Of a stretch of 64,000 bases of DNA, positions 2,729-60,807 are shown one piece after another; the first letter of the stretch is position 1; each line of letters begins with the position of its first letter. The notes under the pieces were generated by a model. That model was not told the origin of the DNA. It worked only from the letters and a program-made list of their open reading frames with translations, and searched no databases. Position numbers and translations under genes: made by a program. Source of the stretch: a virus (taxonomy: Duplodnaviria; Caudoviricetes); IMG/VR virus record IMGVR_UViG_3300028833_000053. One strand, given 5' to 3'.

Positions 2729-3069
2729 TGGGCGAGTCCTATTCAACATTGGTTGTGCAGCCAATCGACTTGGTGCGGGCGTTCAAGCTGGATTTCTGCT
2801 TTGCGTCCGTAATCAAGTGGCTGACGAAGTGGCACATGGAGAAGAAAACGGAATACTTGACAAGGGCGAAATACTACATCAACCTTTGCGACAACACCGA
2901 AAATCCAATGGGGCTTCTCTTTTCGCTTCGTATGTACTGCATATTGAATGGCTTTATGAAGAAGGATGCGCAGTCTTGTTTCTTGATGGATGTATGCACT
3001 CTCATATTGAAGGGCGACAAGGACAGTGCCAACTTCCTTTTGCTTAAGGGATGGGCCGATGAGCATTGA
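2728..3069 (+). CDS. Divergent DUF3310-like protein
   Basis: Y..LVVQPIDLV...LDF...VIKW...K.EYL.RAKYYI resembles the DUF3310 pattern. Confidence 0.5.
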   Translation: MGESYSTLVVQPIDLVRAFKLDFCFASVIKWLTKWHMEKKTEYLTRAKYYINLCDNTENPMGLLFSLRMYCILNGFMKKDAQSCFLMDVCTLILKGDKDSANFLLLKGWADEH

Positions 3070-3778
3070 TTAGCAATACGAAGACGCAATCCTCGCCGGA
3101 AACAACTACCTTGGGATTTAGCTTGCCTTGAAACAAGCTGAAAGCCAAGGTTTTTCCGTTCCAGCATACCACGGTACGTACCAGACCTTTGATGAATTCA
3201 AGGAACATGACATCGGGTTCCATTTCTCAAAGGACATAACGATTGCATAGAACCGCCTTGACGATAAGTTTGACGAATGCGACTACACCAATCCGGAACG
3301 TATACTTCATGTTGCACTGTCCATACACAATCCAATTGTGGTAAAGGCGGACATTGGATCTTGGTCTGCGAAGGACATATTGGACGCAGCATCGTACAAA
3401 TACACCAAAACCCCATTTATGTCTCAAGACAGTATGTATTTGTATGAGCAGAAAGCCTGGGCATAGGCGGCGCACAAGGTGTTGAAATCCATTGGCATAG
3501 ACAAGGAAACGGCGCTTGAATTGCGTTCGGGATTAAATACCAGTCCCAAATTGAATTCAGAATACACAGACCATCTGAGACAAAAGTGCATTGAAAGCAA
3601 ATACGATGCCATAATATATCCAAATGATTTTGAATTGCAAGAGGGATTTGACCCTACTTGCTACATCGTTTTCCAGCCAAACCAGATAAAGAGCCTGGAG
3701 CCAACGTATCTCGGCGATGGGAGTCTAATGAGACTGTCAGACAGGTTCAACATCAACTCCCCGTTTTTGAGCCATTGA
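3059..3778 (+). CDS. ADP-ribosyltransferase-like (ART-PolyVal-type) protein, 239 aa with 4 in-frame TAG
   Basis: Reading through TAG gives AYHGTYQTFDEF...IGFHFS...YDAIIY...YIVFQPNQIKS; ends TGA. Confidence 0.65.
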
Positions 3779-3885
3779 AGGTAAATATATCTTGACACCA
3801 ACATTCCCCTTACGTGGAATGATACATAAGTCAAAATGTAAAACCAACGATACACACATCAAGGTTTCGGAGATAGAGGCACAAA

Positions 3886-4575
3886 ATGGCAGACATCAAC
3901 ATACCAGTGACGAATCCATCGTTGAACGCAAGTCTGAGCGATCAATCGAAGGTAGACGACTCCATCAAGCAGGAGAGCGTGGTGATAAACGCATCCAGCG
4001 GGTCCACAATCAACAACAACTCCGGAAACAAGCATGGGGAACTGACAAGAAAGACCTCTATGATTATAATGATTCTTCTGTCTGCCTTATGCGACTGCGG
4101 ACTTGGGTTCATTCTCTACAACCACCAGCTGGAGATACGGTATCAGTCCAAGTAGGAGCAGTAGACACTCTCGCATCAGATAGCAGATACGAACAGGGAA
4201 CTAAAATAGGCCATCAAGGACGCCCAAGCCGCGCATAAGTGTTTGCATGACGAGACATAGGCCGTAAAGAAGCAGACCGAGTTGATGAAAAATGAGACGA
4301 AGACCCAGACCGAGATTGTGAGGAAGGAGGCGAAAGAGGGGACGATATGGTTGTTGCGAGACGATATCATCAAGACAATAGATATCCATGAAGCCATGAA
4401 GAAGATAACTCCCAAGCAGTACAAGCGGTTGAAGGACGAGTTCGATTACTACACCTCAATTGGCGGCAACCACGATGTAAAGGAAAGGTTTGACGATTTC
4501 ACGACCAAGATTTACGGCACGGGCGAAGTCAAGATGATCAATGAAATCCAACTTCTACAGGAAGAAAAGAAATAA
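3886..4575 (+). CDS. Holin-like membrane protein with 4 in-frame TAG
   Basis: One TM segment, coiled coil, then LLRDDI...YTSIGGNH; ORFs 3886 and 4282 are in one frame separated only by TAG. Confidence 0.55.
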
Positions 4576-4587
4576 GGGGAAACAATC

Positions 4588-4992
4588 ATGAAGAAACTCA
4601 TATACGTTGCGTCAATTTGCCTTGCACTTGTTTTGTGTGGATGCTTTGCCAAGGTCACGGTGAACAAGCGTCCAAACGTGGCACTTCCAATATACGATTC
4701 CTACAGCCAAATGTACTACCCCACCAACAAGCCAGTGATTGTCAACTACATGATTCTTGACCAGGGATATGAAGTGCAATACCGCAAGTTTGGATTCAAC
4801 ACGGACATCCAGTCAATGTCCGCCGAGATCACAACCAACAAGACCGTGAATTTCCAACTTGGGGGACTTCATTCAGTTTCTGCAACCACCAACAACATCA
4901 GTATAAAGTTGGATGAGATATTGAAGATTGCCCAATTGTTCAGGGATTCCACCAATGACGTAATTGTTATAGACCGTCAGGAATTGAAGTAA
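4588..4992 (+). CDS. Lipoprotein, possible spanin or lysis accessory
   Basis: Signal peptide with lipobox-like LVLCGC. Confidence 0.6.
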   Translation: MKKLIYVASICLALVLCGCFAKVTVNKRPNVALPIYDSYSQMYYPTNKPVIVNYMILDQGYEVQYRKFGFNTDIQSMSAEITTNKTVNFQLGGLHSVSATTNNISIKLDEILKIAQLFRDSTNDVIVIDRQELK

Positions 4993-5679: not shown

Positions 5680-5754
5680 CACGGTGTAGCAAAATGGTCT
5701 TGCAACGGACTTTTAATCCGTGAGATGCGGGTTCGAGTCCCGTCACCGTGACCA
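5680..5754 (+). tRNA. tRNA-Lys(TTT)
   Basis: Cloverleaf, CACGGTG/CACCGTG, loop CT-TTT-AA, CCA. Confidence 0.9.
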
Positions 5755-5795
5755 AATCAAGTGAAACGCCTAAAAACTTTTTTCAGAATTTTCCG

Positions 5796-5842
5796 AAACC
5801 CCCTTGCTTTTGGGGAACGGATATGGTATACTGTGTGTGTTG
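5796..5842 (+). promoter_or_regulatory. Sigma70-type promoter P2
   Basis: AAACCCCC-TTGCTT-17 nt-TATACT. Confidence 0.7.
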
Positions 5843-5878
5843 ACGCGAAACAAGGTTTCCACGCGAAACAAGGTTTCC
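5843..5878 (+). repeat. Perfect 18-bp tandem duplication in the P2 leader
   Basis: ACGCGAAACAAGGTTTCC x2. Confidence 0.9.
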
Positions 5879-5925
5879 ATCAACGCCGCTCTTTGAAGGT
5901 TGCGCGAGCAACCGGCAAGAACAAA

Positions 5926-5944
5926 GCTCTTTGACAACTGAATG
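5926..5944 (+). promoter_or_regulatory. boxA-like element 2
   Basis: GCTCTTTGACAACTGAATG. Confidence 0.6.
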
Positions 5945-6116
5945 ATTCAATGTAGGAAAGACTGTTCCGCTTGGCGGAACATTCATCACGCAAGTCACCC
6001 CTTGGAGGAAACTCATAAGAGAACCTTGGGTCTAGCGCGGATGGTTCTACGATTTCAAACGATTCTTAAATTGGGCCGAAGCATCGGGCCCAAGCCAACG
6101 CGAGGCGATCAGTCCT

Positions 6117-6178
6117 TATCCACTGGCGTGGTTGCATACGAATGTGTGCAATGCGGGTTCGACTCCTGCGGTGGGATA
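6117..6178 (+). ncRNA. D-armless tRNA-like mini-RNA
   Basis: Acceptor-like stem, one hairpin, T-arm GCGGG-TTCGACT-CCTGC. Confidence 0.5.
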
Positions 6179-6197
6179 GATGCTCCAATTTCAAGAT

Positions 6198-6273
6198 TGC
6201 GGGACGGTGCATCGGTTGCATATCGGGTTCATACCCCGAAGATGGTTGGGTTCGACTCCCACTCCCGCTACCA
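6198..6273 (+). tRNA. Initiator tRNA-Met(CAT)
   Basis: 1:72 mismatch, GGG/CCC anticodon stem, CCA. Confidence 0.85.
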
Positions 6274-6787
6274 ATTTGGAATGACGACGTGAAGTTCTCT
6301 GGCAAGAGACGCGAACATACTGGACCGATAGTTCCCCAGAACGGGTCAAAGTTCATGATACTGAAGGTATGGGCGTTCCAATTCCATTTGAATCAAAGGT
6401 AAGGCGAATTTGCTCTGTGGTGTAAGCAAACACACCTCCTGACAATAGGAGGAATTGGCCTGCGATTGGTCTGGAGCAACCGTGGTATGAAAAATCCACA
6501 CCTCATATTAAAGGACAAAACGTCATTTGGAGTAATTGACCAGTTGGCGCCGAGAATATGATAGATTGCCTTTGAGAACGACCTTTCAAGGTCGTAAAGA
6601 ACGACCTTTTCAATTTGCGCAAAAGCCCAGACGTGGGCAAGGTTGTACGGTGAAGTACGTTATACCTGCGTTATAAAGGACATGAGCATCCGGACGATGC
6701 CGCCCCGAGAGTAAAATGGGGAAAGACCAGGGGTTCAACTCCCACATGTCCCAGCGAAATTTCAAATTGGTTGCGTTGCGCAACCTT

Positions 6788-6867
6788 GACGCGAATGGAA
6801 GCTGAAGAAGGTTTGAAATCGTAAGTTCAAATAGCGTTCAGCCCTTGGTCCGATTCCAAGGCGCGTC
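6788..6867 (+). ncRNA. D-armless tRNA-like mini-RNA
   Basis: GACGCG/CGCGTC stem, GCTGAA/TTCAGC helix, T-arm CTTGG-TCCGATT-CCAAG. Confidence 0.5.
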
Positions 6868-6881
6868 TTTACAATTTAGAT

Positions 6882-6969
6882 TCGGCAATACCCGAGTTGG
6901 TAGCAGGGGAGGGACTGTTAATCCCTTGGCGAAAGCCCGTCGCTGGTTCGAGTCCAGCTTGCCGAGCCA
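6882..6969 (+). tRNA. tRNA-Asn(GTT) with a long variable arm
   Basis: Loop CT-GTT-AA, V-arm GGC-GAAA-GCC, G73, CCA. Confidence 0.85.
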
Positions 6970-6976
6970 TTTCAAT

Positions 6977-7052
6977 GCTCCAGTAGCTCAATCGGCAGAG
7001 CATGGGACTCTTAATCCCGGGGTTGTGGGTCCGATTCCCACCTGGAGTACCA
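6977..7052 (+). tRNA. tRNA-Lys(CTT)
   Basis: Cloverleaf, CCA. Confidence 0.9.
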
Positions 7053-7057
7053 ATTTC

Positions 7058-7143
7058 CTTGCTGTTGCTGTTGGTTCAAATCCAACCTGGTCTGAAAGGC
7101 ATTGCCAGGACCGGAAAGCGATGCGATTGGTTTCAACAGCGGG
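7058..7143 (+). ncRNA. Circularly permuted tRNA-like RNA (YrlA/Y-RNA-like topology)
   Basis: Terminal 10-bp stem enclosing a T-arm, a loop-closed acceptor-like stem and a D-like arm, in that order. Confidence 0.45.
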
Positions 7144-7326
7144 ATTCTTTTCTTCAAACATTGAACGCCACACCTTTCGTATTAGTGGCTAGTACGCCCC
7201 GTGGCAGACGGGGAGAGGTTGGTTCGAGTCCAACAAGGTTAAAGCTGGCTTTCAATGTTTCGCGCCTTGCATCGGGCGCAGGTTGGCAAGGTGCGTGTTC
7301 TAGTTCGCGCAGTCCCAACTGAAACG

Positions 7327-7381
7327 TCCATATACGGCCTGAGTGATGATCACCACTCGTGGGTTCAACTCCCACTATGGA
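7327..7381 (+). ncRNA. D-armless tRNA-like mini-RNA
   Basis: TCCATA/TATGGA stem, one hairpin, T-arm GTGGG-TTCAACT-CCCAC. Confidence 0.5.
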
Positions 7382-7403
7382 AGTAGATGCGGCCTTTCTA
7401 AAT

Positions 7404-7482
7404 GGTTCCGTAGACCAATTTTGGCAGAGTCACATGCTTGAGGTGCATGACAGTATGGGTTCGAGTCCCATCGGAACTACCA
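7404..7482 (+). tRNA. tRNA-Leu(GAG), short variable loop
   Basis: Cloverleaf, CCA. Confidence 0.85.
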
Positions 7483-7484
7483 AT

Positions 7485-7561
7485 GGATGCGTAGCCCAAC
7501 GGCAGGAGGCAAATGACTCAAAATCATTACAGTGTGGGTCCGAATCCCACCGCATCTACCA
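7485..7561 (+). tRNA. tRNA-Leu(CAA), short variable loop
   Basis: Cloverleaf, CCA. Confidence 0.85.
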
Positions 7562-7570
7562 TTTCAAACT

Positions 7571-7649
7571 GGTGGCGTAGCCCAATTTGGCAGGAGGCAG
7601 CGGTTTCAAACTCCGCGTAGTATGGGTTCGAGTCCCTTCGCCACTACCA
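7571..7649 (+). tRNA. tRNA-Leu(CAA), second copy with a U31-U39 mismatch
   Basis: Leu-type D-loop, loop TT-CAA-AC, CCA. Confidence 0.7.
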
Positions 7650-7667
7650 CTTTGTATAATTGGATGT

Positions 7668-7958
7668 ATGGAAAACGATATTGTTCTTGACTTCATACAT
7701 CGCAGGTTTCCAGACGATTGCCGTTGGCTCAATGGAAACTGCTACTTCTTCGCGTTGATTCTCCGCGAACGTTTCCCATGCGGGAAAATCCTCTATGATG
7801 TCATAGACGGGCATTTCGTTTGCGAGATTGATGGAAAGAAGTACGATTGGTCTGGAATCGTGAATGAATCTGGTGAACACCAATGGGTTGAATGGGACAG
7901 ATTCTACGAATACGACAATCTTCAATTTGAACGTGTGGTGAAAGACTGCACGATGTGA
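7668..7958 (+). CDS. Hypothetical protein inside the tRNA array
   Basis: MENDIVLDFI...GNCYFFA...YDWSG; own TATAAT 7 nt upstream. Confidence 0.7.
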   Translation: MENDIVLDFIHRRFPDDCRWLNGNCYFFALILRERFPCGKILYDVIDGHFVCEIDGKKYDWSGIVNESGEHQWVEWDRFYEYDNLQFERVVKDCTM

Positions 7959-7995
7959 AACATCGCATGATGCAGAGCATCACACGTTATGACAT

Positions 7996-8074
7996 GGCGG
8001 TGTAGCCCAACTTGGCAGGAGGCAGCACGTTCAGGGCGTGTGTAGTGTGGGTCCGAATCCCACCATCGCTACCA
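7996..8074 (+). tRNA. tRNA-Leu(CAG), short variable loop
   Basis: Cloverleaf, CCA. Confidence 0.85.
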
Positions 8075-8076
8075 AT

Positions 8077-8154
8077 CAGTGAGTAGCTCAGTCTGGCTAG
8101 AGTGCCGGGCCCGGAACCCGTAGGTCGCAGGTTCAAATCCTGCCTCACTGACCA
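8077..8154 (+). tRNA. tRNA-Pro(CGG)
   Basis: C1-G72, A73, CCA. Confidence 0.85.
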
Positions 8155-8169
8155 TTTTCAATTTCACAA

Positions 8170-8244
8170 GTCGGGATAGCATAATGGTGGTGCTAGGGAA
8201 TCATAATCCCTCGGTTGTGGGTTCGAGTCCCTCTCCCGACACCA
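8170..8244 (+). tRNA. tRNA-Met or Ile2 (CAT)
   Basis: Cloverleaf, CCA. Confidence 0.8.
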
Positions 8245-8253
8245 AATTTCAAT

Positions 8254-8329
8254 TGGAGTATGGCGAAGTGGTTAACGCACTGGTCTGATACACCAGCATA
8301 CGATGGTTCGATCCCATCTACTCCAACCA
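8254..8329 (+). tRNA. tRNA-Ile(GAT)
   Basis: Cloverleaf, CCA. Confidence 0.9.
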
Positions 8330-8339
8330 ATTTTCAAAA

Positions 8340-8427
8340 CGTCAGGTGCAGCTGAGTAGCGAAGGCCTGTGACTGTAAATCACAGACATTGGAAACAACG
8401 TAGGTGCGAGTCCTACCCTGACGACCA
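8340..8427 (+). tRNA. tRNA-Tyr(GTA)
   Basis: Loop CT-GTA-AA, long V-arm, C1-G72, CCA. Confidence 0.85.
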
Positions 8428-8476
8428 ATTTCAAGTAGTTCATTAGATTTACACTGTAAATCTTGTAAATACTATT

Positions 8477-9151
8477 ATGAACTACAATAAGATTTATAAT
8501 GATTTGATTTAGAAGCGAATTGATCATCCTCTTGAACGAACCTATGACGCTTCAATTGAGGAACATCATATTATTCCTCGATCATTTGGTGGTACAAATG
8601 ACAAGACTAATTTGGTCAATCTGACTTTACGAGAACACTTTGTTGCGCATCTCCTTCTATGGCGCATAAACAAAAATGATTATGTGAAATGTGGTAAAAT
8701 GATAAGTGCGTTATTCTTTATGATGAAGAGGGCGCATAAACTATCATCCAGATTATATGAGAAATTGAGAGTAATGGGTGGTTCTTGGAACGGAAGACAC
8801 CATTCTATTGAAGTGCGTGAAAAAATAAGAATGTCAATGACACCATCTGAATCTTCAAATCCCAGAGTTTGGGTATGCAAAAATGGCATGGTAAAATACA
8901 TACCCAAGGAAAAATTGAATGACTTCTTATAGAAGGGGTGGATTAGAGGTAGAATGGGATATAAACCAAGGAAAAATAAATAGGGAACGATAATAGAAGA
9001 TGGCATAACAAAGGCATTCTATAAAACATGTGAAGGTAGGGTTTATATTCATAACGAAATCTTGAAATAGACCAAACGAGTAATAAAAGACGATGTTTCT
9101 GAATTTTAGAGAAGTGGCTGGAAACTCGGAAGAAAAATATACAACAAATAA
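8477..9151 (+). CDS. HNH homing endonuclease, 224 aa with 5 in-frame TAG
   Basis: MNYNKIYNDLI(TAG)KR...EEHHIIPRSFGGTNDKTNLVNLTLREHFVAH; NUMOD3-like GRHHSIE; ends TAA. Confidence 0.85.
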
Positions 9152-9154
9152 TTT

Positions 9155-18558: not shown

Positions 18559-18562
18559 TTTG

Positions 18563-45449: not shown

Positions 45450-45450
45450 C

Positions 45451-48701: not shown

Positions 48702-48750
48702 AAAACCCTATTGCGTTTTCGCGCCATTTGTGGTATACTGTAAGTGTTCT
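48702..48750 (+). promoter_or_regulatory. Early sigma70-type promoter
   Basis: AAAACCC-TA-TTGCGT-17 nt-TATACT-GTAAGTGTTC. Confidence 0.7.
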
Positions 48751-48789
48751 TTGGGAGAGGAAGGATGCCCGCGAGTTCCTTCAAGGAGA

Positions 48790-50202
48790 ATGGCCATGGC
48801 TGACAAAAAGATTGTTGAAGTGAAAGAGACCGTGATGAAGGGTCTGGAGTATGCGCGTTGGAAGTTGCTTGAGAAGTCCCCCTTCATTGGGGAGATGCTT
48901 CTCCGTTTTTCCATTGTCCCCACCTACGATTGCCGTTGCAACACCGCGGCGACCGATGGCTCAAAGATTTTCTTTGACTGCGAGTTCTATTCCAAGTTGA
49001 ACGAGAAGCAGCGCGAGTTCGTTCTTGCGCACGAAGTTTGGCACAATATCTTCCTTCACTTCCGCCGCCGTCAGACCCGCGAGCCAATGATGTGGAACAT
49101 TGCAACGGACATGGAAATCAACCACATGCTCCAGAACGAGGGCATGGAAGTTCTGGCCGATGCTTGCCTTCCCGATCCCATTGTGGCGGGCAAGAACGCG
49201 GAGGACATCTACGCGCATCTGATGAAGCAGCAGCAAAAGCAGCAGAAGCAGAACGGCAAGGGGAAGGGTCAGGGCAATGGTTCCGACAATTCCAATGAGG
49301 ATGGCGAGGGTGACGGTGACAGCGATGGTGATTCGCAGTCATCCTCTTCTGGTGGTTCTTCTGGCAATGGCAAGAAGTCATCCTCTTCTTCATCCAACAA
49401 CGGCAACAACAAGGGCAAGCATGGCAACCAGTTTGACCGCCACATCTACGAGGGCGAGACCGCCGGTGATGGCGAAAAGCAGGAGGGCAAATGGGGTGAG
49501 AAGGGCTTTGACGAGGACTTCAACCCGTCCATGAAGGACGCGAAGGAGACCGAGGACAAGATCAAGGAAATGGTGACGTCCGTTGCGCAGAGCATTGAGC
49601 GCAAGCAGGGACACCTTCCCGCAGGGGTTGCTTCCCTTGTGGAGAAGATGCTCAAGCCAGAAATCAACTGGAAGGAGGCGTTGTCCCAGTTCGTGACGAA
49701 GACGCTTGGTGGCGAACACTCTTGGTCCCGTTGCTCCCGTCACGCGCTTGCCCGTGGTCACTACCTTCCTGGCAAGACGGACATGAAGATCAAGGCCGCG
49801 CTTGTGCTTGACACCTCTGGCTCCTACCTTCAGGACTTGCCGAAGTTCCTGGCAGAGTTCAAGGCTCTGGTTGAGTCCTTTGGCAAGTACGAAATCACGA
49901 TGGTGCAGTGCGATGCCGAGGTGCAGGATGTCAAGACCTATGACGCGGAGACGCCGATGGAGTTCGACAAGTTCGAGGCAAAGGGTGGTGGTGGTTCCGA
50001 CTTCCGCCCCGCGTTCAAGAAGCTGCGCGAACTGGGCGACGACTTCAATTGCTGCATCACCTTCACGGACGGCTACATCACGATGCCCACCTATCCGCCG
50101 CCCTACCCCACGCTGTTTGTCCTCACGCCTGACGCCGACAAGGACTTCGTGGAATGGGGCGAGAAGATGGTGTACAAGCCCGACTACCGCGAAGAGTTCT
50201 AA
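48790..50202 (+). CDS. DUF2201-type HEXXH metallopeptidase-like plus vWA protein
   Basis: TAATDG, LAHEVWH, WNIATD.EIN, low-complexity linker, LDTSGS, GGGSDF.P, FTDG. Confidence 0.85.
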   Translation: MAMADKKIVEVKETVMKGLEYARWKLLEKSPFIGEMLLRFSIVPTYDCRCNTAATDGSKIFFDCEFYSKLNEKQREFVLAHEVWHNIFLHFRRRQTREPMMWNIATDMEINHMLQNEGMEVLADACLPDPIVAGKNAEDIYAHLMKQQQKQQKQNGKGKGQGNGSDNSNEDGEGDGDSDGDSQSSSSGGSSGNGKKSSSSSSNNGNNKGKHGNQFDRHIYEGETAGDGEKQEGKWGEKGFDEDFNPSMKDAKETEDKIKEMVTSVAQSIERKQGHLPAGVASLVEKMLKPEINWKEALSQFVTKTLGGEHSWSRCSRHALARGHYLPGKTDMKIKAALVLDTSGSYLQDLPKFLAEFKALVESFGKYEITMVQCDAEVQDVKTYDAETPMEFDKFEAKGGGGSDFRPAFKKLRELGDDFNCCITFTDGYITMPTYPPPYPTLFVLTPDADKDFVEWGEKMVYKPDYREEF

Positions 50203-51090
50203 TGGAAACGGAGACGAAAATGGCTAATGAAAGCGGACGAAAACTCAGGGGCCGCAAACTCATCCTGAACTGGGGAAATTTGAAGCTGGAGATTTCCAAG
50301 CTGCCCCATCGCCACGCCGCGGACACTCTCATATTTGACTTGTTTGGGAGCGGTGTCCTTTTGGCAAACGTATATGAAACCCCAGATGGTCACTTGGAGG
50401 ACGAGATTCTTGGACAGCCAGCAGGATGGCGCGGCGACGGTACGATGCTTGAGGGGTATCGCATTGGGCAATACGTGACGGACAACGGATATTGGAAAAC
50501 CATCGGAGAGGCAAATTCAACGAAAGAAGGAAACGCACAATGAACCAACTTGAAACCAAATTCTATGAACACGTCCCATATCTTTTGGGTAAAATCGTAA
50601 AGCAGCTTAAGACCATGAACAAACTCAAGGCATTGGAACTGAAAGCCAAGCCATTTGAAAACAACATCACTCCAGAAATGGTGGATGACATTATGGAGGG
50701 TTGAAATGGAATCACATTGGCTCATACCAATTATGGCGTTCACCATTGTGCCAATCGTGGTTTTGCTTCTTGCAGTGGTGGCTCAAATCTTGGCCGACAT
50801 TTTTGGATAAGGAGAATGTAAGCATGGACGATGACATAAAGGTAAGCCGTTATTGGGACGGCACACGATTGCGAAACACCATCACTTTGATGGAGCAGTT
50901 CTACGTTCTCATGAACGATGAGCGACTGGACGAGAAGCACCGTATTTGCGCAAAGCGTTTGTTTGAGCATGAGCGCCGTCTTGCAATGAACCTCTTGATG
51001 AAGGAGTTTCCCAAGGACTTCAAGACCGACATGTTCATCAACAGCATGTACATTGACGATATGTTCAAGAAATATCCAGACAAGGATTGA
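50202..51090 (+). other. Three small hypothetical genes (50202-50543, 50540-50704, 50701-51090)
   Basis: Overlapping start and stop codons. Confidence 0.6.
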
Positions 51091-51092
51091 CT

Positions 51093-51473
51093 ATGGAAGC
51101 CTCCATCGAGGAGATAATCCGGAACCTCAACAACGTCTATGACTACTGCAAGCCATGGGGAAACCAACACGTCATATTTGAATTTGACTTCCACGAATTC
51201 GGTGAACCCCTGACATACTCCAACATGACCAGACGGGGATATAGGTTCAAGGTTGCGCATACGTCGGATGAACTGACGCAAATAATGTTTGACCTGTCAA
51301 TGAACTCATACATTGTGAACGTGAACATGGACATACGTGTGGGTTGGGTGAAGTTCAACGTGTCGTTGGTTGAAAGTCCCGATCACGGAACAAACATAAC
51401 GCCCGAACTCGTGGAGACATTCAACAGGATATTTGAACTTGACCACACCGATTAGGGCAAAGAGATTGTATGA
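51093..51473 (+). CDS. ES-x-x-x-x-TN family paralog 1, with 1 in-frame TAG
   Basis: Reading through TAG ends at a TGA overlapping the next ATG (ATGA). Confidence 0.65.
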
Positions 51474-51866: not shown

Positions 51867-52199
51867 ATGAGCAGCGAGGAAGTGGAGTCTGGTTTCAACG
51901 ACTTTGTCCAGAAGGTGAAGACGGGAAAACTGTTCTGGGGAGTCTACGTCTGGTGGGAGCAAAAGCACCGCAAGTTCTTCCAGGGGATGAATGGGAAAAT
52001 CCTTGACGATGACGATTTGATTGGCGTTCTGTTTGAACTATCCATCTCAAGGAAAATCACGGAAATAAGCTCTAACAGGTATGGACAGGAAATAGGATTT
52101 CCAGCAATTGCTCTGCACATAACATTTGGTGAAAGTGGTTCAGTTGAAACCAACGTCAGCGAAAAGGCGTTGTCAACACTGTCGGAGCTGCCAAAATGA
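51867..52199 (+). CDS. ES-x-x-x-x-TN family paralog 3 (divergent)
   Basis: LFELSI..GESGSVETNV. Confidence 0.55.
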   Translation: MSSEEVESGFNDFVQKVKTGKLFWGVYVWWEQKHRKFFQGMNGKILDDDDLIGVLFELSISRKITEISSNRYGQEIGFPAIALHITFGESGSVETNVSEKALSTLSELPK

Positions 52200-52534
52200 A
52201 GATGATGACAAATAGACAGATAGTGGACATCATAAGCCACGAGCCGGAACTTGAAAACAAGACATGCTGCATTTGGCTCTGCACAGATGGGAAATGCGAT
52301 GTAATTGACATTTGCAGGTTCAAGACGGTAGATGAGTTTTCCGAGTTTCTGTTTGGGATTTCCCTTACGCATTTCGTGGAGGATGTTCATAGGTTTGATT
52401 CAAGAAACCACACCGACATTGACATCTTCATGGATGAATCAACCAACGGACGCACGAACATTGATGTCAAGGTTGTTGATTCAATCCTGGACTATTTCTT
52501 GAAAATTCAAGACGGTGAACAAGTTTAGATGTGA
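52196..52534 (+). CDS. ES-x-x-x-x-TN family paralog 4 (divergent)
   Basis: LFGISL..DESTNGRTNI; TAG two codons before TGA. Confidence 0.55.
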
Positions 52535-52598
52535 CAACCGACAAGTAAACCAAAAAGTTGCCAGTTGTCATCTTTATGCCCGAATGGTAAATACAAGC

Positions 52599-54464
52599 AT
52601 GGCAATCATTCAATCATAGGAAGCTGACGGTCTGCGAATTGGCAGTATGCAGAATCTCTACGCCGAGTCAATGGTGCAAGAGAACTACATACGTGACCAA
52701 ATACGTGCGTATGGAACCGACATACGGTACTTCAAGTTGAAGACCCCATATCCTGAGGTGTTCAAGCCCATACTTGACGCAAACAACCTTGCCATTCATG
52801 CCTATGGCGAGGGATATGTTCAGGAATGGGAAGATCCAGTGCGGATGATTGCATACCTCAAATGGGATTCCGACTCCATCATTCTCAACGCCTATGGGGT
52901 GTAGCCAGATTCAACCTTGACGATGTGGCTTGACCAGACGGACTTCGCAATTTCCCTTGCGAAGAAACTTTCACAATGGAGGGAATACAAGGTTGTCGGG
53001 CATTCTGAATTCATTTTGGATTTTGACGGAGTTGATGATTTGGCGCGAAACCAAAACAACGTTGCGATGGAGTTCACAACTGACCTTTTTGACGGCTCAC
53101 TACGCGCCATAATAACAAACCATACATTGAACAAGCTGTTAACCAATGACAGTTGTGAAAAACTGGAAACGCCAATAACAATACCTTGCGACATACTTGA
53201 CCACGGGCCATTGAAGATAGACACAGGGCGCATAAACCCCCTTCTCTACAAGGGAAACCACTATGACCCGTTTGAGGACAACATGGTGGATTGTCACCTT
53301 CATCTTGAAGTCACTTCCATATTGAGGGACAAGCACGGTTGCATAAAGATAATGGGTGGAATACGCGGCGGTGTAATCTACCACGATACCACGGTGATTG
53401 GAAAGTACATTGACAAGGTGAAGCCTGAAGTTGGGGACTTGATTGACGTTCCAGTTCCTGGAAAAGACGGAACTGAGCAGATATACAACCAGAAATACGA
53501 AATCGTACACATAGAGGAAACCATCACAAACGAATCCTACATGAATCCGTTTCTGAGGAAGTACATCTACCAGTGCAATCTTCGTGCATATGTGGCAAGC
53601 GGTCAGACGGAACCCGACGAACAAGAAGCAACGAAGGAAAAGGCAGACAACTTGGCTTTGATAAACCAGGCTGCGGAAAACGCGGCAAAGAAGATTGGGC
53701 TGTACGAGGACTTCGAGGATGACGTATATGGCGGATACCACAAGATAAACAAGCGCACCACCGCCAGCGTACAACGTGATGCTAAAAACTCAACCATAAA
53801 CAACTTTGACGCACCGGAAGACACTACTGGATTGAAGAAGTCCGTAATGCCATTGTTCATATTCAAGGATATGGAAATGGTGTTGTCCTTGGTGTCAAAC
53901 GGCAAGGAGAACGAATCACACTTGAAGTTGTCCGCTCTGAACCAATACACCAACCTTGACCCGAACTTCCAATACATAAATTATTTGAGAGCGGACGATG
54001 ACAACTTGGTTCTTGCAGATGGGACAAGGGCGTATTTGCTTGCAGGAAGATTCAAGCAGCAAGAGTTGGATGATGAGACATATTGTCTCAAGCCCATACG
54101 TCTGAAGCACGAAGTCTACGCCCAGCACAATGGTTGGGCAGACCAACCCTTCCACCAAGTTGACGCTCCAACCCCACCAGAGGTTTCAGACTGCAAGGGG
54201 GAAGAAGAGCTGGATATGAACCTTCAGGACTTGCTTGGAAAGAACACCACACACAAATGGAAATCCGCTTCCGAAAACCGGTTGACGTTCCCATGGACAA
54301 ACACCTATCTTGAGGTGGAATACGAAAAAGTGGAAGCAGACCCAGAAGATGAAGAAAGCAAGACCTTTGAAATATGGACTTGCTTTGCCGTGTTTGCGGG
54401 GGATAAATCAGAAGAAGGGCAAAAGGGGCATTGGCCGATTTGTTCGTATATCAGGACTCTTTGA
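52599..54464 (+). CDS. T4 gp14-like neck protein, enlarged (621 aa, 2 in-frame TAG)
   Basis: QIRAYGTDIRYF and KPEVGDLI..KYEIVHIE..NPF; GGTAAATA upstream. Confidence 0.65.
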
Positions 54465-54773: not shown

Positions 54774-55871
54774 TTATCTGTGCTTCTTGTCTTCAGGGAA
54801 GATCATTGTGTTCAGGATTTCTCGTATGTACCACAATCCCTTTGTGAAGTTGTCCTTGCCAACTTTTTGACGCTCTTTGTTTTCCTTCTCCATTGTTGTA
54901 CTGAGTTGGTGGACAAGGCTGGACAAGTCGTTGTACGTCATATAATGTTCCTTGTCAAATATGCAGCAATCATACCTGAACACCAAAAGACACTCAACCT
55001 GCAAGATGAATCCATAAAGGCTCTTCAGTGAGCCATAGAACAGACTGTAGAACAAGGATGATTGGGACAAACCATAATACGTGTCCTTGTGGCATTGTGG
55101 GCAAAGTTCCGTGTTGAAGCAGTTTTCAAGTCTGTTTATGAAATAACCGGTGACCTTTGCGAACACGCCATCTTCATCGTCAAACATCACCATTGACGGC
55201 AATGCGTTGAGACAGTCCAATCTTCCCTGCATTGTGTCTATGGCTTCAAGATCAACGCTGGCTTCTGGCGTATGTGTCGCGTCCAATCCCCTGTATACCA
55301 CAACTTTCTTCACGAACGCCAAAACAAGGTTTATGCCAAATTGGGTTTGCTCCATTTCCTCCGTAACCACGCCAAGCTCCTCATAGAAGTAGTGCATCAA
55401 CTTTGACATGGTTTTCACGGTCGGCCAACCCATAGTGAATTCGTATATCTTGGACTTGTACGGTATTTCCACAACCTGGTCTTCAACATACGCATTGTCC
55501 ATCTTGCAAAGGTACTTTGACATATCATAGCGGTAGTTGATGTCAACCCCGCAATGTGGACACTTGTACGTTATGGGGTCTTTGAAGAAGGACATTTGGA
55601 AAAACACCATCAAGCAGTAAAGTCTGTCAAACTCCGTGAATTCCTTTACGTCAACGTTGTCGGTAAGAAGCATTACCTGCAGGTATTCCGTCACTGCGTC
55701 ATATATCACGTCCATTTGCCTCCTGTCAAAGTTGTCAATGATGGTCTTGGCTATGGACTTGAGTTCAGTCACGGTGGTTTCGCGCAAAACGACAGGCAAG
55801 CCGGAACTTGGCAACGTAATGGGTATTCTGTTTGTTGGAAACCCCTTGCTGAACAAGTCCCGGTTTGTCAT
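54774..55871 (-). CDS. T4 gp26/gp51-like baseplate hub protein, paralog A
   Basis: ITLPSSG..V.LRE.TV.ELK, TEFDR, YKCPHC, C-terminal CPQC. Confidence 0.6.
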   Translation of the reverse strand: MTNRDLFSKGFPTNRIPITLPSSGLPVVLRETTVTELKSIAKTIIDNFDRRQMDVIYDAVTEYLQVMLLTDNVDVKEFTEFDRLYCLMVFFQMSFFKDPITYKCPHCGVDINYRYDMSKYLCKMDNAYVEDQVVEIPYKSKIYEFTMGWPTVKTMSKLMHYFYEELGVVTEEMEQTQFGINLVLAFVKKVVVYRGLDATHTPEASVDLEAIDTMQGRLDCLNALPSMVMFDDEDGVFAKVTGYFINRLENCFNTELCPQCHKDTYYGLSQSSLFYSLFYGSLKSLYGFILQVECLLVFRYDCCIFDKEHYMTYNDLSSLVHQLSTTMEKENKERQKVGKDNFTKGLWYIREILNTMIFPEDKKHR

Positions 55872-55899
55872 CGTCAACTCTCCGTTATGTCACATGGCA

Positions 55900-56898
55900 T
55901 TAGCCGCCAAGGAAGTCCGTGATGTTGGCGACCTGTCCATCCTGCTGCGCACCGCAATAGGCGCAATCCTGGTACTTGAACACATCGTTCATCGGCGTGA
56001 CAAACTCCTTGATAATCTTGTTGATTACTCCAATGTCCTCGTCAAACAAGATGCTCTGAGGCAGGGAGTCGATGATTTGAACCCTCTCAGGATACGTGAG
56101 TTCCTCAAGATTTGCCGTCAAAGAATCTTCTGGGTCGGAGATTTCCGAAACGGTAATCTTCTTGATGAACATGATGATGTACTCAACCTGGGAAAGACTG
56201 TCCATGGACTCCTTCACGTTCTTGTTGGAACCCTCGTACTTTCTGTAGTAGTTCTTGAAGAAGTCCTCGATGTTCCTGACATTCGCCCAACCGGCTGTGA
56301 ACGTGAACTTGCGGTTACCCGCCTCAATCTCAATCTCGGTGTCGGGTTTGTAGGTCTTTGCGAAGTTGCGCAGAAGTTTCGCCGTGTCCAGACGGTAGGA
56401 GTTTTCCTTTTCGCAATTCTGGCATGTGTACTTGATTTCGGGATTGAGCTTGTTCATCTGCTGAAGGTTCAACGTGATGAAGATTCTCTCGAACTCCGTG
56501 TAGTCGCGGATGTCAAAACCCTTCTCAAGGGCAAGACGGTTAATCATTGAAGTCATGGCGCAGTACATGACGTCCGCCCTTGACTTGTTTTCCAACGCCA
56601 TCTTTGACATGTCCTTCTGCTCGGCGGTGGAGATTTCCTTGAACTCCACGGTCTTGCCGACGCTGGGCAGGTCAATTGGTGTTGAATTCGTGGACATCTT
56701 CTGACGGAAGGCGTTCACAATGTTTGCCGCGTTTGTGGGCTTCTTCTCCTGTTTCTTCACGGGAAGAACCTTCAATTCCGGAGTTGCCTCCGATGTCTGG
56801 GAAGCCGCTGCTTCCTTCTCCAGCTCCTGATTTACAAGATTCGCCGTAGCGGTGTCAGCCGGAACTTCGTCCTTGTAGTGTGTAATAGGTGGTTGCAT
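55900..56898 (-). CDS. T4 gp26-like baseplate hub protein, paralog B
   Basis: IDLPSVG..VEFKE.STAEQK, TEFER, YTCQNC, CAYC. Confidence 0.6.
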   Translation of the reverse strand: MQPPITHYKDEVPADTATANLVNQELEKEAAASQTSEATPELKVLPVKKQEKKPTNAANIVNAFRQKMSTNSTPIDLPSVGKTVEFKEISTAEQKDMSKMALENKSRADVMYCAMTSMINRLALEKGFDIRDYTEFERIFITLNLQQMNKLNPEIKYTCQNCEKENSYRLDTAKLLRNFAKTYKPDTEIEIEAGNRKFTFTAGWANVRNIEDFFKNYYRKYEGSNKNVKESMDSLSQVEYIIMFIKKITVSEISDPEDSLTANLEELTYPERVQIIDSLPQSILFDEDIGVINKIIKEFVTPMNDVFKYQDCAYCGAQQDGQVANITDFLGG

Positions 56899-57695
56899 TA
56901 TTTTACCTCGCTTTTCCTTGTTTTAGATTTCCTCGCCTTGCCTTTTTTCGCAGGCTTCTTTTCCGCCTTTTCGGACTTCTCGGTCTTTTCCTTGTCATCC
57001 ATTCCAATCTCAACGGCTCCAGTGGAGTCCTTGTTTTGAAGATTTGACATGAAAGACTGCAGCTTCTTCATTTGCTCCCTCTTCGCCTTGTTTGTCTCGC
57101 GGTTGATGATGTCAACCTTCTTGCGGAAACGCTCCACCACCTCATCGGCGTGAAGCCAAATATCCTTGCCGTCCAGCACCTCCTGGATTTCCTTCTTGGT
57201 GAGGAAGTGCTTGTAGATTTCGTTGAAGAAGTTTTCCAACCAAGGGTTGTAGAATTCCTCCTCCTTCTTGATGTCGGATTGCTTTCCAAACGAACATCCA
57301 GATGACGTGTGGATCATCATATAGCCATGTGGATAGCAAATCAAGCCATCGCAAGCCAAGGCAACCATAGTCGCCGCGCTTGCACATGCGGACTCAATTT
57401 GGCAAACAACTTGCGCTTGGCACAACTTTATCTGCGTCACTATCTGGATTGCGGTGAACAAATCCCCGCCAAAGCAGTTGATGTGAATTACAACAAGGTC
57501 GTCCTCTCCGGCGGATTGAAGGATGTCAAACCACTTCAAGAAGCACCTTGCATCTCCAATCTCGTCAATCAGCCAAAGATGGAATATGTTCTTTACCTGT
57601 TTTCCATAGGAAACCATATTCTCCTTGTCAAACTGTCCATCCTCGTCGGAAAGCCCTGGGAGCAGCCCCTTGAAACTTTCTATCTTCGTTTTCAT
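56898..57695 (-). CDS. ClpP-family serine protease
   Basis: HINCFGGD, ACASAAT, MMIH, DIWLHADE. Confidence 0.85.
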   Translation of the reverse strand: MKTKIESFKGLLPGLSDEDGQFDKENMVSYGKQVKNIFHLWLIDEIGDARCFLKWFDILQSAGEDDLVVIHINCFGGDLFTAIQIVTQIKLCQAQVVCQIESACASAATMVALACDGLICYPHGYMMIHTSSGCSFGKQSDIKKEEEFYNPWLENFFNEIYKHFLTKKEIQEVLDGKDIWLHADEVVERFRKKVDIINRETNKAKREQMKKLQSFMSNLQNKDSTGAVEIGMDDKEKTEKSEKAEKKPAKKGKARKSKTRKSEVK

Positions 57696-57866: not shown

Positions 57867-58580
57867 ATGGTTGTTCCCCATACGGGCTGCCATAAACATA
57901 CACAACAACATGATACAGAGGGTAAAACTTTGAGAAAGAGAAAAACCCGTAGTTCATACAGAAACAAATCTGACCTTCGCCCCGATTCAGGAGCAAGGCA
58001 CAAGAAGAAGAACAAGAAAAGATATGTCGAAAACCAGAAGGAGAAGTTCAGAAAGTCAAAGGAGTGGAAGGAATTTAGAGGTCGGATGGCAAAGCTGTTC
58101 AACCACCGCGACTACATAACGGGCAGAAAGCTCGTAAAGGGGTTCAACGTCCACCATTTAAGGACGGAACAGGACGCCGAAAACTATTGCGACATATCCA
58201 ATGAAGAGGAATTCATACCTCTGAATTCATATTGCCACAAGATGCTTCATTATCTGTTCATCTTCTACCAAAAGGACAAGACAATCATGAACAGAATAAG
58301 AGAAATACTTGACAAGATGTGCGACCTTTCGGTGAAGCACGGTGTAGACCCCGTTGACCTTGATCATTGTCTTCAAGACATAGAAGAAACCGAACCCCAA
58401 GACGAGTATGACCCGGAAATTGACGGAGACGGTGGCAACGAGGAAATGCTTGAATAGATGGAAGACATAGAGCAACTGGATGAAACCCAGCCGGAATATG
58501 ACATTCCAGAGCAGGAACCTGACGAATACATTTCATCTAAGGAACTTGGAAATCAAATGTTTCCAAAACCCGAAGTATGA
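57867..58580 (+). CDS. HNH-like protein with an acidic tail and 1 in-frame TAG; start uncertain
   Basis: SKEWKEFR, NVHHL, LNSYCHKMLH. Confidence 0.65.
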
Positions 58581-58581
58581 T

Positions 58582-58845
58582 TTACAGGGCTATTGTATGA
58601 GCCTGTGAGAATGGAATTCTTGTGCTGGTTATTGGCGGCATAAGGGACTGGTTGTACAACGCCTCGTTCTCCGCGTTCATTCGGTCAATTTCCTCATAGT
58701 CCTTTGCCAATCTCAAGTCAATGTCAAGTTGGGACAATTCATCCTCTACGTATTCTTGGGGTTTTGGCAATTTGGCGTTGGGGTCTGACTTGAACAAGCC
58801 CGGACGCAAATTCCTGTCCCATGCCAATGGATTTCTGTACGCCAT
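58582..58845 (-). CDS. Small hypothetical protein
   Basis: ORF directly after the portal gene. Confidence 0.5.
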   Translation of the reverse strand: MAYRNPLAWDRNLRPGLFKSDPNAKLPKPQEYVEDELSQLDIDLRLAKDYEEIDRMNAENEALYNQSLMPPITSTRIPFSQAHTIAL

Positions 58846-58860
58846 TAATCCACCCCGTCA

Positions 58861-60807
58861 TTAACCAAAGGGATTGTCTCCGCCCTCGTCACCACCTGCG
58901 TCATCTCCACCTTCATCGCCTCCAGCTTCATCTCCACCAGCGGCGTCGTCACCACCTTCTTCTCCGCCACCTTCTCCCCCTTCACCATTCTCCTCATCGG
59001 CGGTTGTGACGTTTATCTTGTTGGTGTTGAAAATGCTATGTGCAAGCAGTTCCTCAAGGCTGGACATAGACATTGTCTTCAACTTCGTAATCTGAGAAGC
59101 GTCAATCTCGCCACCCATGTACTTCTCGCCAATGCCCTCAACCATTGCGGCCATGATACCATCAAACAAACGAAGTTGGTTCATTTCGTTTATCTCTGCG
59201 TCAGTCATTCCCAAGATGTTCTTCTGCGCCCAAGTCTTTGACATTTCATCGCGGTCGGCATACTTGGCGTAAAGATCCATCTTCTGTGTGATTTCCTGGT
59301 TGGAAATGAACTTGGAATAGACGTATGGCGGAGTGAATTCAACGTAGAAGTCACTTTCCTTCATCTGGTTCTTCTGCCATATTCCACGCAGCTTCAAATG
59401 GACGATGAACGAGTCTTGCAACGCCTTTGCGAACTTCATTTGAATGCCAAGTTCCATCTTGGAGAAGGAGAATTCCTCTTGCGTGATTTCGGTTGAAGCA
59501 CGGTAGGAATTGGATTCAAGGTTGTCCCAGCGCGTGTATGGAACGCCAAATTGCTTTATGAGACGTTTCAAGAAGAACTTGAGGTCTTCAATCTGGTCGT
59601 ATTGCGCCGTTGATTCAACAGTGGAAACCGTAGTGCCATCGTTTGCGTTGGATTTCGGGAACACCCAGGAATCCAACATGGAACTTGGATTGTAGGTCTT
59701 GCCAATCATGGAATTGTTGGACTGGCGGTCAATCTTCGCAACCTTCTTTTCGGAAAGTTTCTGCGCAAACTTCCTAACATATTCATGCGCAACCTTGTCC
59801 GCCATTCCACCAGTTGCTATGTTGAAGAGAAGTCTCTGCGGTGCCCTCGTAACGCGGAGAATAACCGCGGCGTCCTGCAAGAGAACCAATTGGTAGTACG
59901 CCTGCTTCACGCCCTCAATGATGGAATAGGTCACTCGCCCATTTGGAGATTTCTTGTCATGCGAGAAATACGTTATCTGCGGGAACAGCAAAGGCACAAC
60001 GTTCTGCGCCGAACTGAAATCCAATCCACGGTAGCCATTGGTGTAAATGGTGTTGAATATGGCGGAGTTCTGCGAGTAGTACGCGGACAAAGTGTATTGA
60101 AGTTCCTGTGCGTACTTGTCAAGGTCAAAGTAGATGCCGCAATTCTCGCCAGTAGCCTGGTTGATGAGAATGTCGTAGAAATCGTTTCTCAACCGCTTCA
60201 CGCCTATGATTCCCAAGGACGGAATGTCGTGGTTGATGATGTTTTCCCAGGCAACCTCGCCCTCAATTACATAGGTGCGGATGATGTCCACAATGTTGTT
60301 GCGGATGTCAAACAACTTGATGAAGTTGGAAAACTCCTTCTAAATGAGTTCCTGTTGCTGTGGCGTTATCTTGTCGGAAATGTCCTCGGAGAAATTCAAT
60401 CGTATGAACTCTCCAGTAGATGACACCGTAAGGAAGTCGGACGCGATTTCGTTTATGCACCAGTTGCACTCGGGGAATTCAGAAATGGCGCGGTACTGCC
60501 AAAGACGTTGGCACTTGTCCGTTATGAGGGGAATGTAGTTGTGGTTGAACTCGTCTGAGACGTAGCCAAAGAACGCCGTGGAAATTCCAGGATTCTGCAG
60601 GGACACGATACCCTGCTTCTCCACAATCTTTTCAATCTTTGAGGTATAGGACTTGAAAGTCTCGAAGTTACGGTTCTATGCGAGAATCTATATCCTGTCC
60701 TCTCCCTCTGGTCCGACGTTTCCCGCGCCCTACGTGTTAAGCTTGTTCATTCTGTCCACGGGGCTCGCGGATGCAGTCAATACGCTATGGTTGTTGTTGT
60801 TCGCCAT
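58861..60807 (-). CDS. T4 gp20-like portal protein, 648 aa with 4 in-frame TAG
   Basis: QYRAISEFPEC..INEI; QLVLLQDAAVILRVTRAPQRLLFNI; SMLDSWVFPK; QIEDLKFF. Confidence 0.9.

Follow-up and report, generated by a model that had tools for sequence, protein, structure and literature searches.

Probable reassignment of TAG to glutamine in a 434-kb T4-related phage

A circular 433.8-kb T4-related phage (433,768 bp once an end overlap of 127 bp is removed) very probably uses genetic code 15, in which TAG encodes glutamine and the terminators are TAA and TGA. The analysed DNA, here called the window, is a 64-kb stretch of this genome. Two complete related genomes, G001 and G002, of 414 and 418 kb, are recoded too. 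Gut and rumen phages with this type of recoding have been described before, in the crAss-like, Lak, Jade, Sapphire, Agate, Garnet, Amethyst and Topaz clades (bioRxiv 10.1101/2021.08.26.457843), and peptide proof that TAG is read as Gln exists for two crAss-like phages (PMC9523058). The phage described here adds one example, and with it a T4-related lineage of approximately 414-434 kb, leaving the current picture of phage recoding unchanged.

In the window, some 22-25 genes are broken by in-frame TAG codons alone, about 70 codons in total. This agrees with the preliminary description, which reported more than 20 genes split by TAG only; the in-frame codons lie where it had placed them. When TAG is treated as a sense codon, the window is filled with closely packed ORFs containing one to seven TAGs each. 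The ORF list obtained in this way has 71 TAGs in 23 listed ORFs; in the stricter gene set selected by coding score, TAG occurs in 23 of the 76 window genes, 55 codons in all. For the coding-score sets, coding density in the window is 63.1% under code 11, 69.8% with TAG as sense, 54.7% with TGA as sense and 61.2% with TAA as sense; in the region 32.4-47 kb it rises from 60.7 to 83.9% with TAG as sense. The respective values for the whole genome are 83.1, 86.0, 75.7 and 81.2%. Thus density increases for TAG alone and drops for the other two stops, and gene length and summed coding score also improve solely when TAG is sense. Clean junctions, defined as single in-frame stops with at least 40 well-scoring codons on each side, number 53 for TAG, 13 for TGA and 6 for TAA in the genome (6, 1 and 0 in the window). 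Giant ORFs of 4834, 3591, 3356 and 2147 aa require read-through of 11-12 TAGs each.

Read-through had been described as restoring conserved motifs of the portal, of gp15, of the Stealth protein and of the radical SAM enzyme, and indeed Pfam domains cross TAGs in all four genes. The T4 gp20-type portal (58861-60807, minus strand; Portal_T4, E=5e-64) has TAGs at residues 26, 40, 44 and 156. In the T4 gp15-like tail sheath stabiliser (36106-37245, plus strand, four TAGs), PF16724 spans TAGs 75, 114 and 156; the open frame reaches back to 35971, and alignments with homologues begin at ORF residue 46. The conserved regions CR1, CR2 and CR4 of the Stealth-family transferase (32459-33349, plus strand, TAGs at residues 142, 201 and 285) fall into one ORF only after read-through. 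Of 120 homologues (approximately 292 aa), 104 have their last residue at query position 295 or 296, the last two of the ORF and 10-11 residues beyond the last TAG, and in general TAG columns do not align with protein ends. Several of these homologues come from Bacteroidales. In the radical SAM enzyme (44640-45449, minus strand, five TAGs), PF04055 (residues 7-115) spans TAGs 77 and 108. The same is seen in a family 2 glycosyltransferase (45451-46902, minus strand), which with seven TAGs is the densest gene of the window and has PF00535 (residues 26-149) spanning TAGs 64 and 86, and in an ADP-ribosyltransferase of the ART-PolyVal type (3026-3778, plus strand, four TAGs, start codon uncertain), where PF18760 (residues 41-224) spans TAGs 75 and 147. 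The label gp14, also given earlier, found no Pfam or PHROG match of such kind among the ORFs scanned.

Start and stop coupling is restored as well, at the junctions reported before. The DUF1919 gene (33346-34026, plus strand, two TAGs) overlaps the Stealth stop codon by ATGA at 33346, and a small gene with a TAG five codons ahead of its TGA (51087-51473, plus strand) overlaps the next gene in the same way at 51470. On the minus strand, the TAA of the radical SAM gene (44642-44640) is directly followed by the ATG, at 44639, of a glycosyltransferase-like gene with four TAGs (43974-44639). An HNH endonuclease gene with five TAGs and a weak HNH Pfam match (8477-9151, plus strand) lies within an array of 34 tRNAs (5680-18645; ARAGORN), which also contains two ordinary tRNA-Gln genes, UUG and CUG (15890-16048, plus strand; ARAGORN). 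Its start MNYNKIYNDLIxKR is read directly as proposed, and the true gene start is at about 8477, the ORF being open from 8303. Another endonuclease gene, of the HNH_3 type (42616-43239, plus strand), has one TAG. A BspA-type leucine-rich-repeat protein (34902-36017, minus strand; Pfam LRR_5, E=1e-32) has two.

The remaining TAG-bearing genes of the window have no assigned function. On the plus strand, four TAGs each occur at 3886-4575, which is open and well scoring solely with TAG as sense, and at 34036-34896; two TAGs occur in the gene of a 501-aa protein with a high coding score (39012-40517), five in that of a 611-aa protein (40539-42374), two in that of a protein of about 626 aa (52584-54464; open from 52515, with the start MVNTSMAII according to relatives) and one at 57867-58580. 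A small minus-strand gene (63123-63500) has one TAG close to its start. The region 20-32 kb is a block of small genes almost without TAG, and one gene in it (28518-29117, plus strand) carries a single TAG. Finally, the small plus-strand gene at 52196-52534, ending in ...QV-TAG-ATG-TGA, is the sole window gene whose TAG could be a working stop.

Glutamine emerges as the residue from the codons aligned to TAG in the complete relatives. At 245 TAG positions compared with G001 or G002, the aligned codons are CAG (58), CAA (18), TAG (21), AAG (21) and others in smaller numbers. Among the 223 aligned sense codons, Q occurs 76 times, K 28, D 14 and E 13, plus others, and Gln leads the next residue, Lys, by 168 lnL units. 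In the reverse direction, TAGs of the relatives stand opposite CAG (37) and CAA (30) in the phage genome. The pooled CAG:CAA ratio, 95:48, equals the genome's 64:36 usage among aligned codons, and thus it is the residue that is conserved; mutational proximity, a one-step C/T neighbourhood effect, does not account for the pattern. In the conserved portal column 156, Q is present in 59 of 78 homologues with less than 70% identity. At this level of identity Q ranks first, weakly, over ten columns; the TAG columns of gp15 and Stealth are variable and polar, and there Gln is compatible and not decisive. Against Gln, the T4 proteins carry L, L, H and E opposite four of the TAGs, but these positions are variable and come from alignments with 20-25% identity. 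Both checks proposed in the preliminary description, on coding density and on the residues aligned to TAG, gave results that support it.

The genome carries a single tRNA with anticodon CUA, the candidate decoder, 81 kb outside the window at genome coordinates c[410487,410576] (ARAGORN). Its score with the tRNA-clan covariance model, 33.6 bits, is below the gathering score. The molecule is 90 nt long and has a long class II-like extra arm and A73 instead of G73; in Rfam it comes closest to the tRNA-Sec model, with a score below threshold, and it resembles the phage tRNA-Gln genes no more than several other tRNAs. The body of this tRNA does not by itself point to Gln. On the other hand, it has the U1-A72 pair and U35, features favoured by bacterial GlnRS. 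No GlnRS was found in the phage genome, and thus charging would be by the GlnRS of the host. Since the phage genome encodes no release factor (no RF-1 domain was found), the tRNA would compete with release factor 1 of the host. In G002, ARAGORN found no tRNA(CUA) despite in-frame TAGs there.

The unusual tRNA, together with Lys as the second commonest aligned residue, is what speaks for a sense meaning other than Gln, that is, Ser, Leu, Tyr, Lys or pyrrolysine. This is very unlikely. The margin of Gln over Ser, Leu and Tyr is even larger than that over Lys; Y, L and W account for 2, 3 and 0 of the 223 aligned codons; and the portal column is mainly Q. Moreover, the phage tRNAs for Thr, Asn, Arg and Ala have long arms too and those for Leu have short ones, so arm length is no guide to identity here, and in the closest relative the tRNA(CUA) lacks a long arm. 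Pyrrolysine decoding of UAG, for which PylS and a Pyl biosynthesis operon would be expected beside the tRNA(CUA), is not supported, as no PylS is encoded in the genome (TIGR02367 is unmatched); the designation tRNA-Pyl is a mere ARAGORN label for the CUA anticodon.

Genes that appear fragmented under code 11 might in principle be pseudogenes, products of assembly or sequencing errors, or parts of a decaying genome. Nothing specific favours such damage, and it is barely conceivable given that the interruptions are all of one codon type, that they occur in essential single-copy virion genes, for example the portal, and that a matching tRNA(CUA) is encoded. Indeed, two independently assembled complete relatives share the habit, partly at the same positions (the 21 TAG-TAG pairs).

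The preliminary description spoke of a genome-wide reassignment to Gln. The reassignment and the residue are supported, whereas the extent is smaller: 295 in-frame TAGs are spread over 120 of 451 genes (27%), and TAG, with a 7.3% share of Gln codons, is a minor Gln codon. The recoded genes lie in several modules scattered through the genome. Hundreds of in-frame TAGs depend on the tRNA(CUA), which would thus serve a recoded genome as a whole, as opposed to one or a few sites. TAG-free genes number 331, compared with 276 +/- 6 expected under an even spread. They include those for the gp23 capsid, sheath, prohead protease, DNA polymerase B, NrdD, helicases, a GyrB-like protein and chaperonin, and TAGs are found in the portal, gp15, tail-repeat proteins, glycosylation genes and homing nucleases. 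Across coding-score quartiles, the number of TAGs per 100 codons decreases from 0.47 to 0.13; as conservation rises, it decreases from 0.37 to about 0.14. Genes with low conservation and poor codon adaptation are enriched in TAG, and so are the ends of genes.

This usage would be expected if decoding of TAG were slower or leakier than that of CAG and CAA. Expression of the portal, gp15, glycosylation genes and homing nucleases would then depend on making the phage tRNA. One tentative reading goes further and sees in TAG a graded attenuator in place of a clean switch between early and late genes. With one phage tRNA competing against the host RF1, TAG would be a slow or leaky codon for Gln. Genes whose products are scarce, which evolve fast or were acquired recently, would tolerate it, as would gene ends, whereas the virion and replication genes with the highest expression would have lost it; a small number of ancestral TAG stops would persist as conserved terminal TAGs followed by throw-away tails.

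The gene ends deserve separate consideration. Stop codons immediately after alignments reaching the C-terminus in relatives are TGA in 143 cases, TAA in 52 and TAG in none (n=195). The last six codons of genes contain 13 of the 295 TAGs, compared with 65 of 3750 CAG/CAA codons, a 2-3 fold enrichment (p=0.004). Tandems TAG-TGA and TAG-TAA occur at two gene ends; two genes have orthologues that end precisely at the position of the phage's TAG; and three have a terminal TAG that is kept in relatives and followed by unrelated tails. One of the latter is 52196-52534, whose orthologue in G001, the closest relative, has TAG at the same place and then an unrelated 24-codon tail. Hence the earlier statement that no gene needs TAG as its stop is nearly right, this window gene being ambiguous. 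The enrichment, and about five genes with TAG where homology ends, allow for some termination at TAG, or for indifference to it; a small number of terminal TAGs could be former stops.

These observations are the basis for a double meaning of TAG, in which it terminates some genes, or all genes early, before tRNA(CUA) is made, and is later read as Gln, the code being switched or leaky. An early/late code switch is proposed by the published model for such phages (bioRxiv 10.1101/2021.08.26.457843; PMC9523058); in addition, the phage has no release factor of its own to tip the balance, and 73% of its genes fit either code. However, the gene ends are equally well explained by terminal TAA codons that drifted to TAG and so gained a short, harmless extension. 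None of the 195 stops at conserved C-termini is TAG, and the TAG-free genes are not just the early ones: the capsid, sheath and prohead protease are among them, whereas the portal and gp15 bear TAGs. A double meaning is therefore conceivable here, although we would not call it probable, and the early/late split described for code 15 phages is not clean in this genome.

Otherwise the phage resembles known code 15 phages in having in-frame TAGs in part of its genes (27%, compared with 26-71% per clade; bioRxiv 10.1101/2021.08.26.457843), a tRNA(CUA), recoded genes distributed over several modules of a large genome, and replication genes largely free of TAG. It differs in size and in its T4-type gp20, gp23 and gp15 virion genes. 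Its 434 kb fall between the clade means, 562 +/- 44 kb for Lak and approximately 210 kb or less for the others (bioRxiv 10.1101/2021.08.26.457843), and size sets it apart from the Lak megaphages of approximately 540-660 kb. Some Lak and Agate phages carry RF2, which is absent here.

A survey of 10,754 jumbo phage genomes described Portal_GP20 in TAG-separated pieces under code 11 and whole under code 15, as well as suppressor tRNAs with the CTA anticodon, and used a 10% gain of coding density as the threshold for recoding (PMC13037316). The portal considered here presents the same picture, whereas the estimated genome-wide gain is about 3 points (83.1 to 86.0%). Thus sparse, expression-linked use of TAG, as observed in this phage, could escape such density-based screens, and if TAG is indeed a graded attenuator, sparsely recoded phages may be under-counted. 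Genes of the phage and its relatives must be called with code 15, as code 11 shatters the portal, gp15, the four giant ORFs and the glycosylation genes. Public protein sets already contain such fragments: the close matches of gp15 begin just past a TAG, and only 3 of 42 close homologues of the portal begin at residue 1, the rest being cut at their own TAGs.

The window corresponds to positions 265268-329267 of a virus record, read on the minus strand; the record is one contig of 433,895 bases with a GC content of 46.6%. The first 127 bases of the record are identical to the last 127, and thus the genome is complete and either circular or terminally redundant. T4-type virion genes are present: those of the gp20 portal, gp15, a ClpP-like head maturation protease (PHROG match) and a gp21-like prohead core protease (Pfam Peptidase_S77) lie in the window, those of the gp23 capsid protein and the sheath elsewhere in the genome. 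The relatives in IMG/VR include two complete genomes, G001 (418 kb) and G002 (414 kb); portal identity is 87-94%.

When TAG is read as a sense codon, the window resolves into tightly packed ORFs with one to seven TAGs apiece. The gene junctions of the preliminary description (ATGA at 33346 and 51470, TAA/ATG at 44640/44639) and the HNH protein start MNYNKIYNDLIxKR, where x is a TAG position, are read directly in the sequence; the name gp14 used there is unsupported by Pfam or PHROGs for the TAG-bearing ORFs scanned. A codon log-odds score was trained on 129 long ORFs of the standard code (code 11), and the best-scoring non-overlapping ORFs were selected under four codes. For the whole genome, code 11 yields 569 genes and a coding density of 83.1%, and TAG as sense yields 451 genes, a density of 86.0% and the highest summed score of the four codes; the density is 75.7% with TGA and 81.2% with TAA as sense. 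The corresponding window densities are 63.1% (code 11), 69.8% (TAG), 54.7% (TGA) and 61.2% (TAA), and in the TAG-rich block at 32.4-47 kb the density rises from 60.7 to 83.9% when TAG is sense. The proposed genome-wide reassignment of TAG is thus accompanied by a gain in coding density, in the window as in the genome, whereas reading TGA or TAA as sense causes a loss.

Among true stops TGA is far more common than the others, yet single in-frame stops with 40 good-scoring open codons on each side are mostly TAG (53 TAG, 13 TGA, 6 TAA). Four giant ORFs outside the window, at genome positions 135513-150017 (4834 aa), 222937-233007 (3356 aa), 9196-19971 (3591 aa) and 410670-417113 (2147 aa), each require read-through of 11-12 TAGs to stay open. 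Pfam domains cross TAGs in the portal, gp15, Stealth, radical SAM, ART-PolyVal and GT2 genes. The density, the stop types and the Pfam domains together demonstrate that the in-frame TAGs are real and that the effect is specific to TAG.

Reassignment of TGA or TAA was considered and rejected. Reading TGA as sense opens many long frames, but the gene set selected by coding score gets worse, and therefore these frames are a composition effect; the sequence is rich in TGA triplets (1460).

Each of the 451 proteins, its TAG positions written as X, was aligned to six-frame translations of the complete G001 and G002 genomes. The codons facing the 245 aligned TAG positions are CAG (58), TAG (21), AAG (21), CAA (18), GAG (11) and, less frequently, others. 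In the reverse direction, in-frame TAGs of the relatives face CAG (37) and CAA (30) in this genome. With substitution profiles of the 20 amino acids derived from the same alignments, glutamine gives the best fit to the 223 aligned sense codons, exceeding lysine by 168 lnL units. Tyrosine, leucine and tryptophan are almost missing among the residues opposite TAG. The pooled CAG:CAA ratio opposite TAG, 95:48, agrees with the 64:36 at which the two codons are normally used in the alignments, and therefore it reflects conservation of the residue rather than the fact that CAG and TAG differ by a single C/T step.

At larger distances, portal residue 156 is glutamine in 59 of 78 homologues (35-59% identity), the background frequency of glutamine being 4.4%. 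The remaining TAG columns of the portal, gp15 and Stealth proteins are variable and polar (E/Q/D, S/T/Q/N, K/E/A/T/Q), and glutamine comes first, narrowly. The choice of glutamine in the preliminary description is borne out by the relatives, and the more distant homologues give a thinner but concordant picture. Pairwise alignment with the solved structures of T4 gp20 and gp15 has an identity of 20-25%, too low for reading the TAG columns. A word-index search for homologues of the radical SAM gene yielded just two fragments and was uninformative, and a search for loci related to a 611-aa gene found nothing.

One tRNA with the anticodon CUA was identified by ARAGORN at genome positions c[410487,410576], 81 kb outside the window and approximately 90 nt downstream of the 2147-aa ORF, which has 12 TAGs. 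Its bases include the U1-A72 pair and A73, the CCA end is encoded, and the extra arm is long. Its match to the tRNA-clan covariance model is below threshold. At the gathering threshold, Rfam has no match to the locus, ribozyme families included; at the E-value threshold the only match is the tRNA-Sec model, below its cut-off. The identity of this tRNA is not readable from its body alone, and odd long arms occur in other phage tRNAs as well. It has no clear nearest relative among the phage's own tRNAs; the 7-mer TCTGAAG is common to its extra arm and the anticodon arm of the phage tRNA-Gln(CUG). At the syntenic site of G001, tRNA(CUA) is 77 nt long and has no extra arm, and thus this feature is not universal in the lineage. 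In G002 it was not found by ARAGORN, with relaxed settings or by a crude pattern scan, which does not prove its absence; in-frame TAGs occur in G002 as well. Since RF-1 domain proteins, GlnRS and PylS are all missing from the phage genome, we infer from the knowledge of amber suppressors that the host GlnRS would charge tRNA(CUA) and that this tRNA would compete with the host RF1.

The window itself carries an array of 34 tRNA genes (5680-18645, plus strand) with interspersed homing-type nucleases, among them an HNH nuclease (8477-9151, plus strand) and a NUMOD3 protein (11621-12508). Several of these tRNAs have unusual shapes: those for threonine, asparagine and alanine are 81-91 nt long with long extra arms, and the four leucine tRNAs have just 77-79 nt. 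There are no tRNA-Tyr or tRNA-Gly genes in the genome. At 12588-12684 (plus strand) ARAGORN calls a 97-nt tRNA-like gene with the 6-nt anticodon loop CTTTGA, labelled 'Lys|Gln, anticodon tt'; its extra arm is long, and the CCA end is lacking. This could be a tRNA whose loop is unusual or else a degenerate gene resembling tRNA-Gln(UUG).

The use of TAG is sparse and uneven. It accounts for 7.3% of the glutamine codons (295 TAG, 2193 CAG, 1557 CAA) and is present in 120 of the 451 genes; 331 genes are TAG-free, against 276 +/- 6 expected under an even spread. Long TAG-free genes in the genome encode the gp23 capsid protein, the tail sheath, DNA polymerase B, NrdD, two helicases, a GyrB-like protein, a chaperonin, methylases and an ArdA polyprotein. 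In the window, the genes for the ClpP-like protease (56898-57695), the gp21-like protease (31424-32158), the DNA methylase and two proteins at 54774-56898 that weakly match baseplate-hub-like PHROGs are free of TAG too. Thus the division is not simply between early and late genes. The number of TAGs per 100 codons falls from 0.47 to 0.13 across rising quartiles of codon adaptation. With conservation it drops likewise, being 0.37 for genes that lack an orthologue and about 0.14 for those of at least 70% identity. The TAG counts by block of the window are 2 at 20-32 kb (small genes), about 40 at 32.4-47 kb (accessory genes: Stealth, DUF1919, LRR, gp15, HNH, GT2, radical SAM) and 11 at 47-64 kb (head genes).

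The sugar-modifying block at 32459-46902 comprises a Stealth transferase, DUF1919, two GT2-like genes and radical SAM, plus a BspA-type LRR protein. Its codon-adaptation scores are low, no other part of the window is as dense in TAG, and the Stealth gene has homologues of approximately 40% identity in genomes of Bacteroidales. These features suggest that the genes came from a donor with the standard code and gained TAG codons later, in the phage.

When an alignment extends to the C-terminal residue of a protein of this genome, the following codon in the relatives is TGA in 143 cases, TAA in 52 and TAG in none. Of 120 Stealth homologues, several of them from Bacteroidales, 104 end at residues 295-296 of the read-through ORF, 10-11 residues past the last TAG. 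The last six codons of genes are nevertheless enriched in TAG (13 of 295 TAGs vs. 65 of 3750 CAG/CAA, p=0.004). Some of these terminal TAGs are plain glutamine codons followed by a conserved tail, as in KKDxTY vs. KKDQTY and LLFRxFTERYTH vs. LLFRQFTERYTH. For two genes, the stop of both orthologues coincides exactly with a TAG of this genome. In three others, including the small gene 52196-52534, the TAG is retained in the relatives and is followed by unrelated tails of differing length. The TAGs at which homology ends resemble former stops, originally TAG or else TAA that became TAG by drift, with harmless short tails, and these cases leave room for some termination at TAG.

Both the observation of TAG recoding and its interpretation are supported. 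TAG-to-glutamine recoding with suppressor tRNAs is already established in crAss-like phages, Lak and six other gut-phage clades (bioRxiv 10.1101/2021.08.26.457843) and has been proven by peptide evidence in two crAss-like phages (PMC9523058). A 2026 survey of jumbo phages illustrates a Portal_GP20 gene fragmented by TAG (PMC13037316). In the restoration of conserved genes, the coding density, the aligned residues and the suppressor tRNA, the present genome fits the phages of code 15, in which TAG is glutamine. It is not of Lak size. The 10% density criterion of the survey (PMC13037316) would probably miss it, because the genome-wide gain is only about 3 points. The modest addition made here is the sparse, graded use of TAG and the apparently vestigial terminal TAGs.

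Two TAG-free genes of the window deserve mention. The 509-aa protein encoded at 48673-50202 (plus strand) contains the DUF2201_N (putative metallopeptidase) and VWA-like DUF2201 domains, and the label of its PHROGs family, 'HNH endonuclease', looks like a mislabel. A homing-endonuclease-like gene (DUF7487) at 37239-38480, on the minus strand directly after gp15, has a very low coding score and is probably a mobile insertion within the tail gene block.
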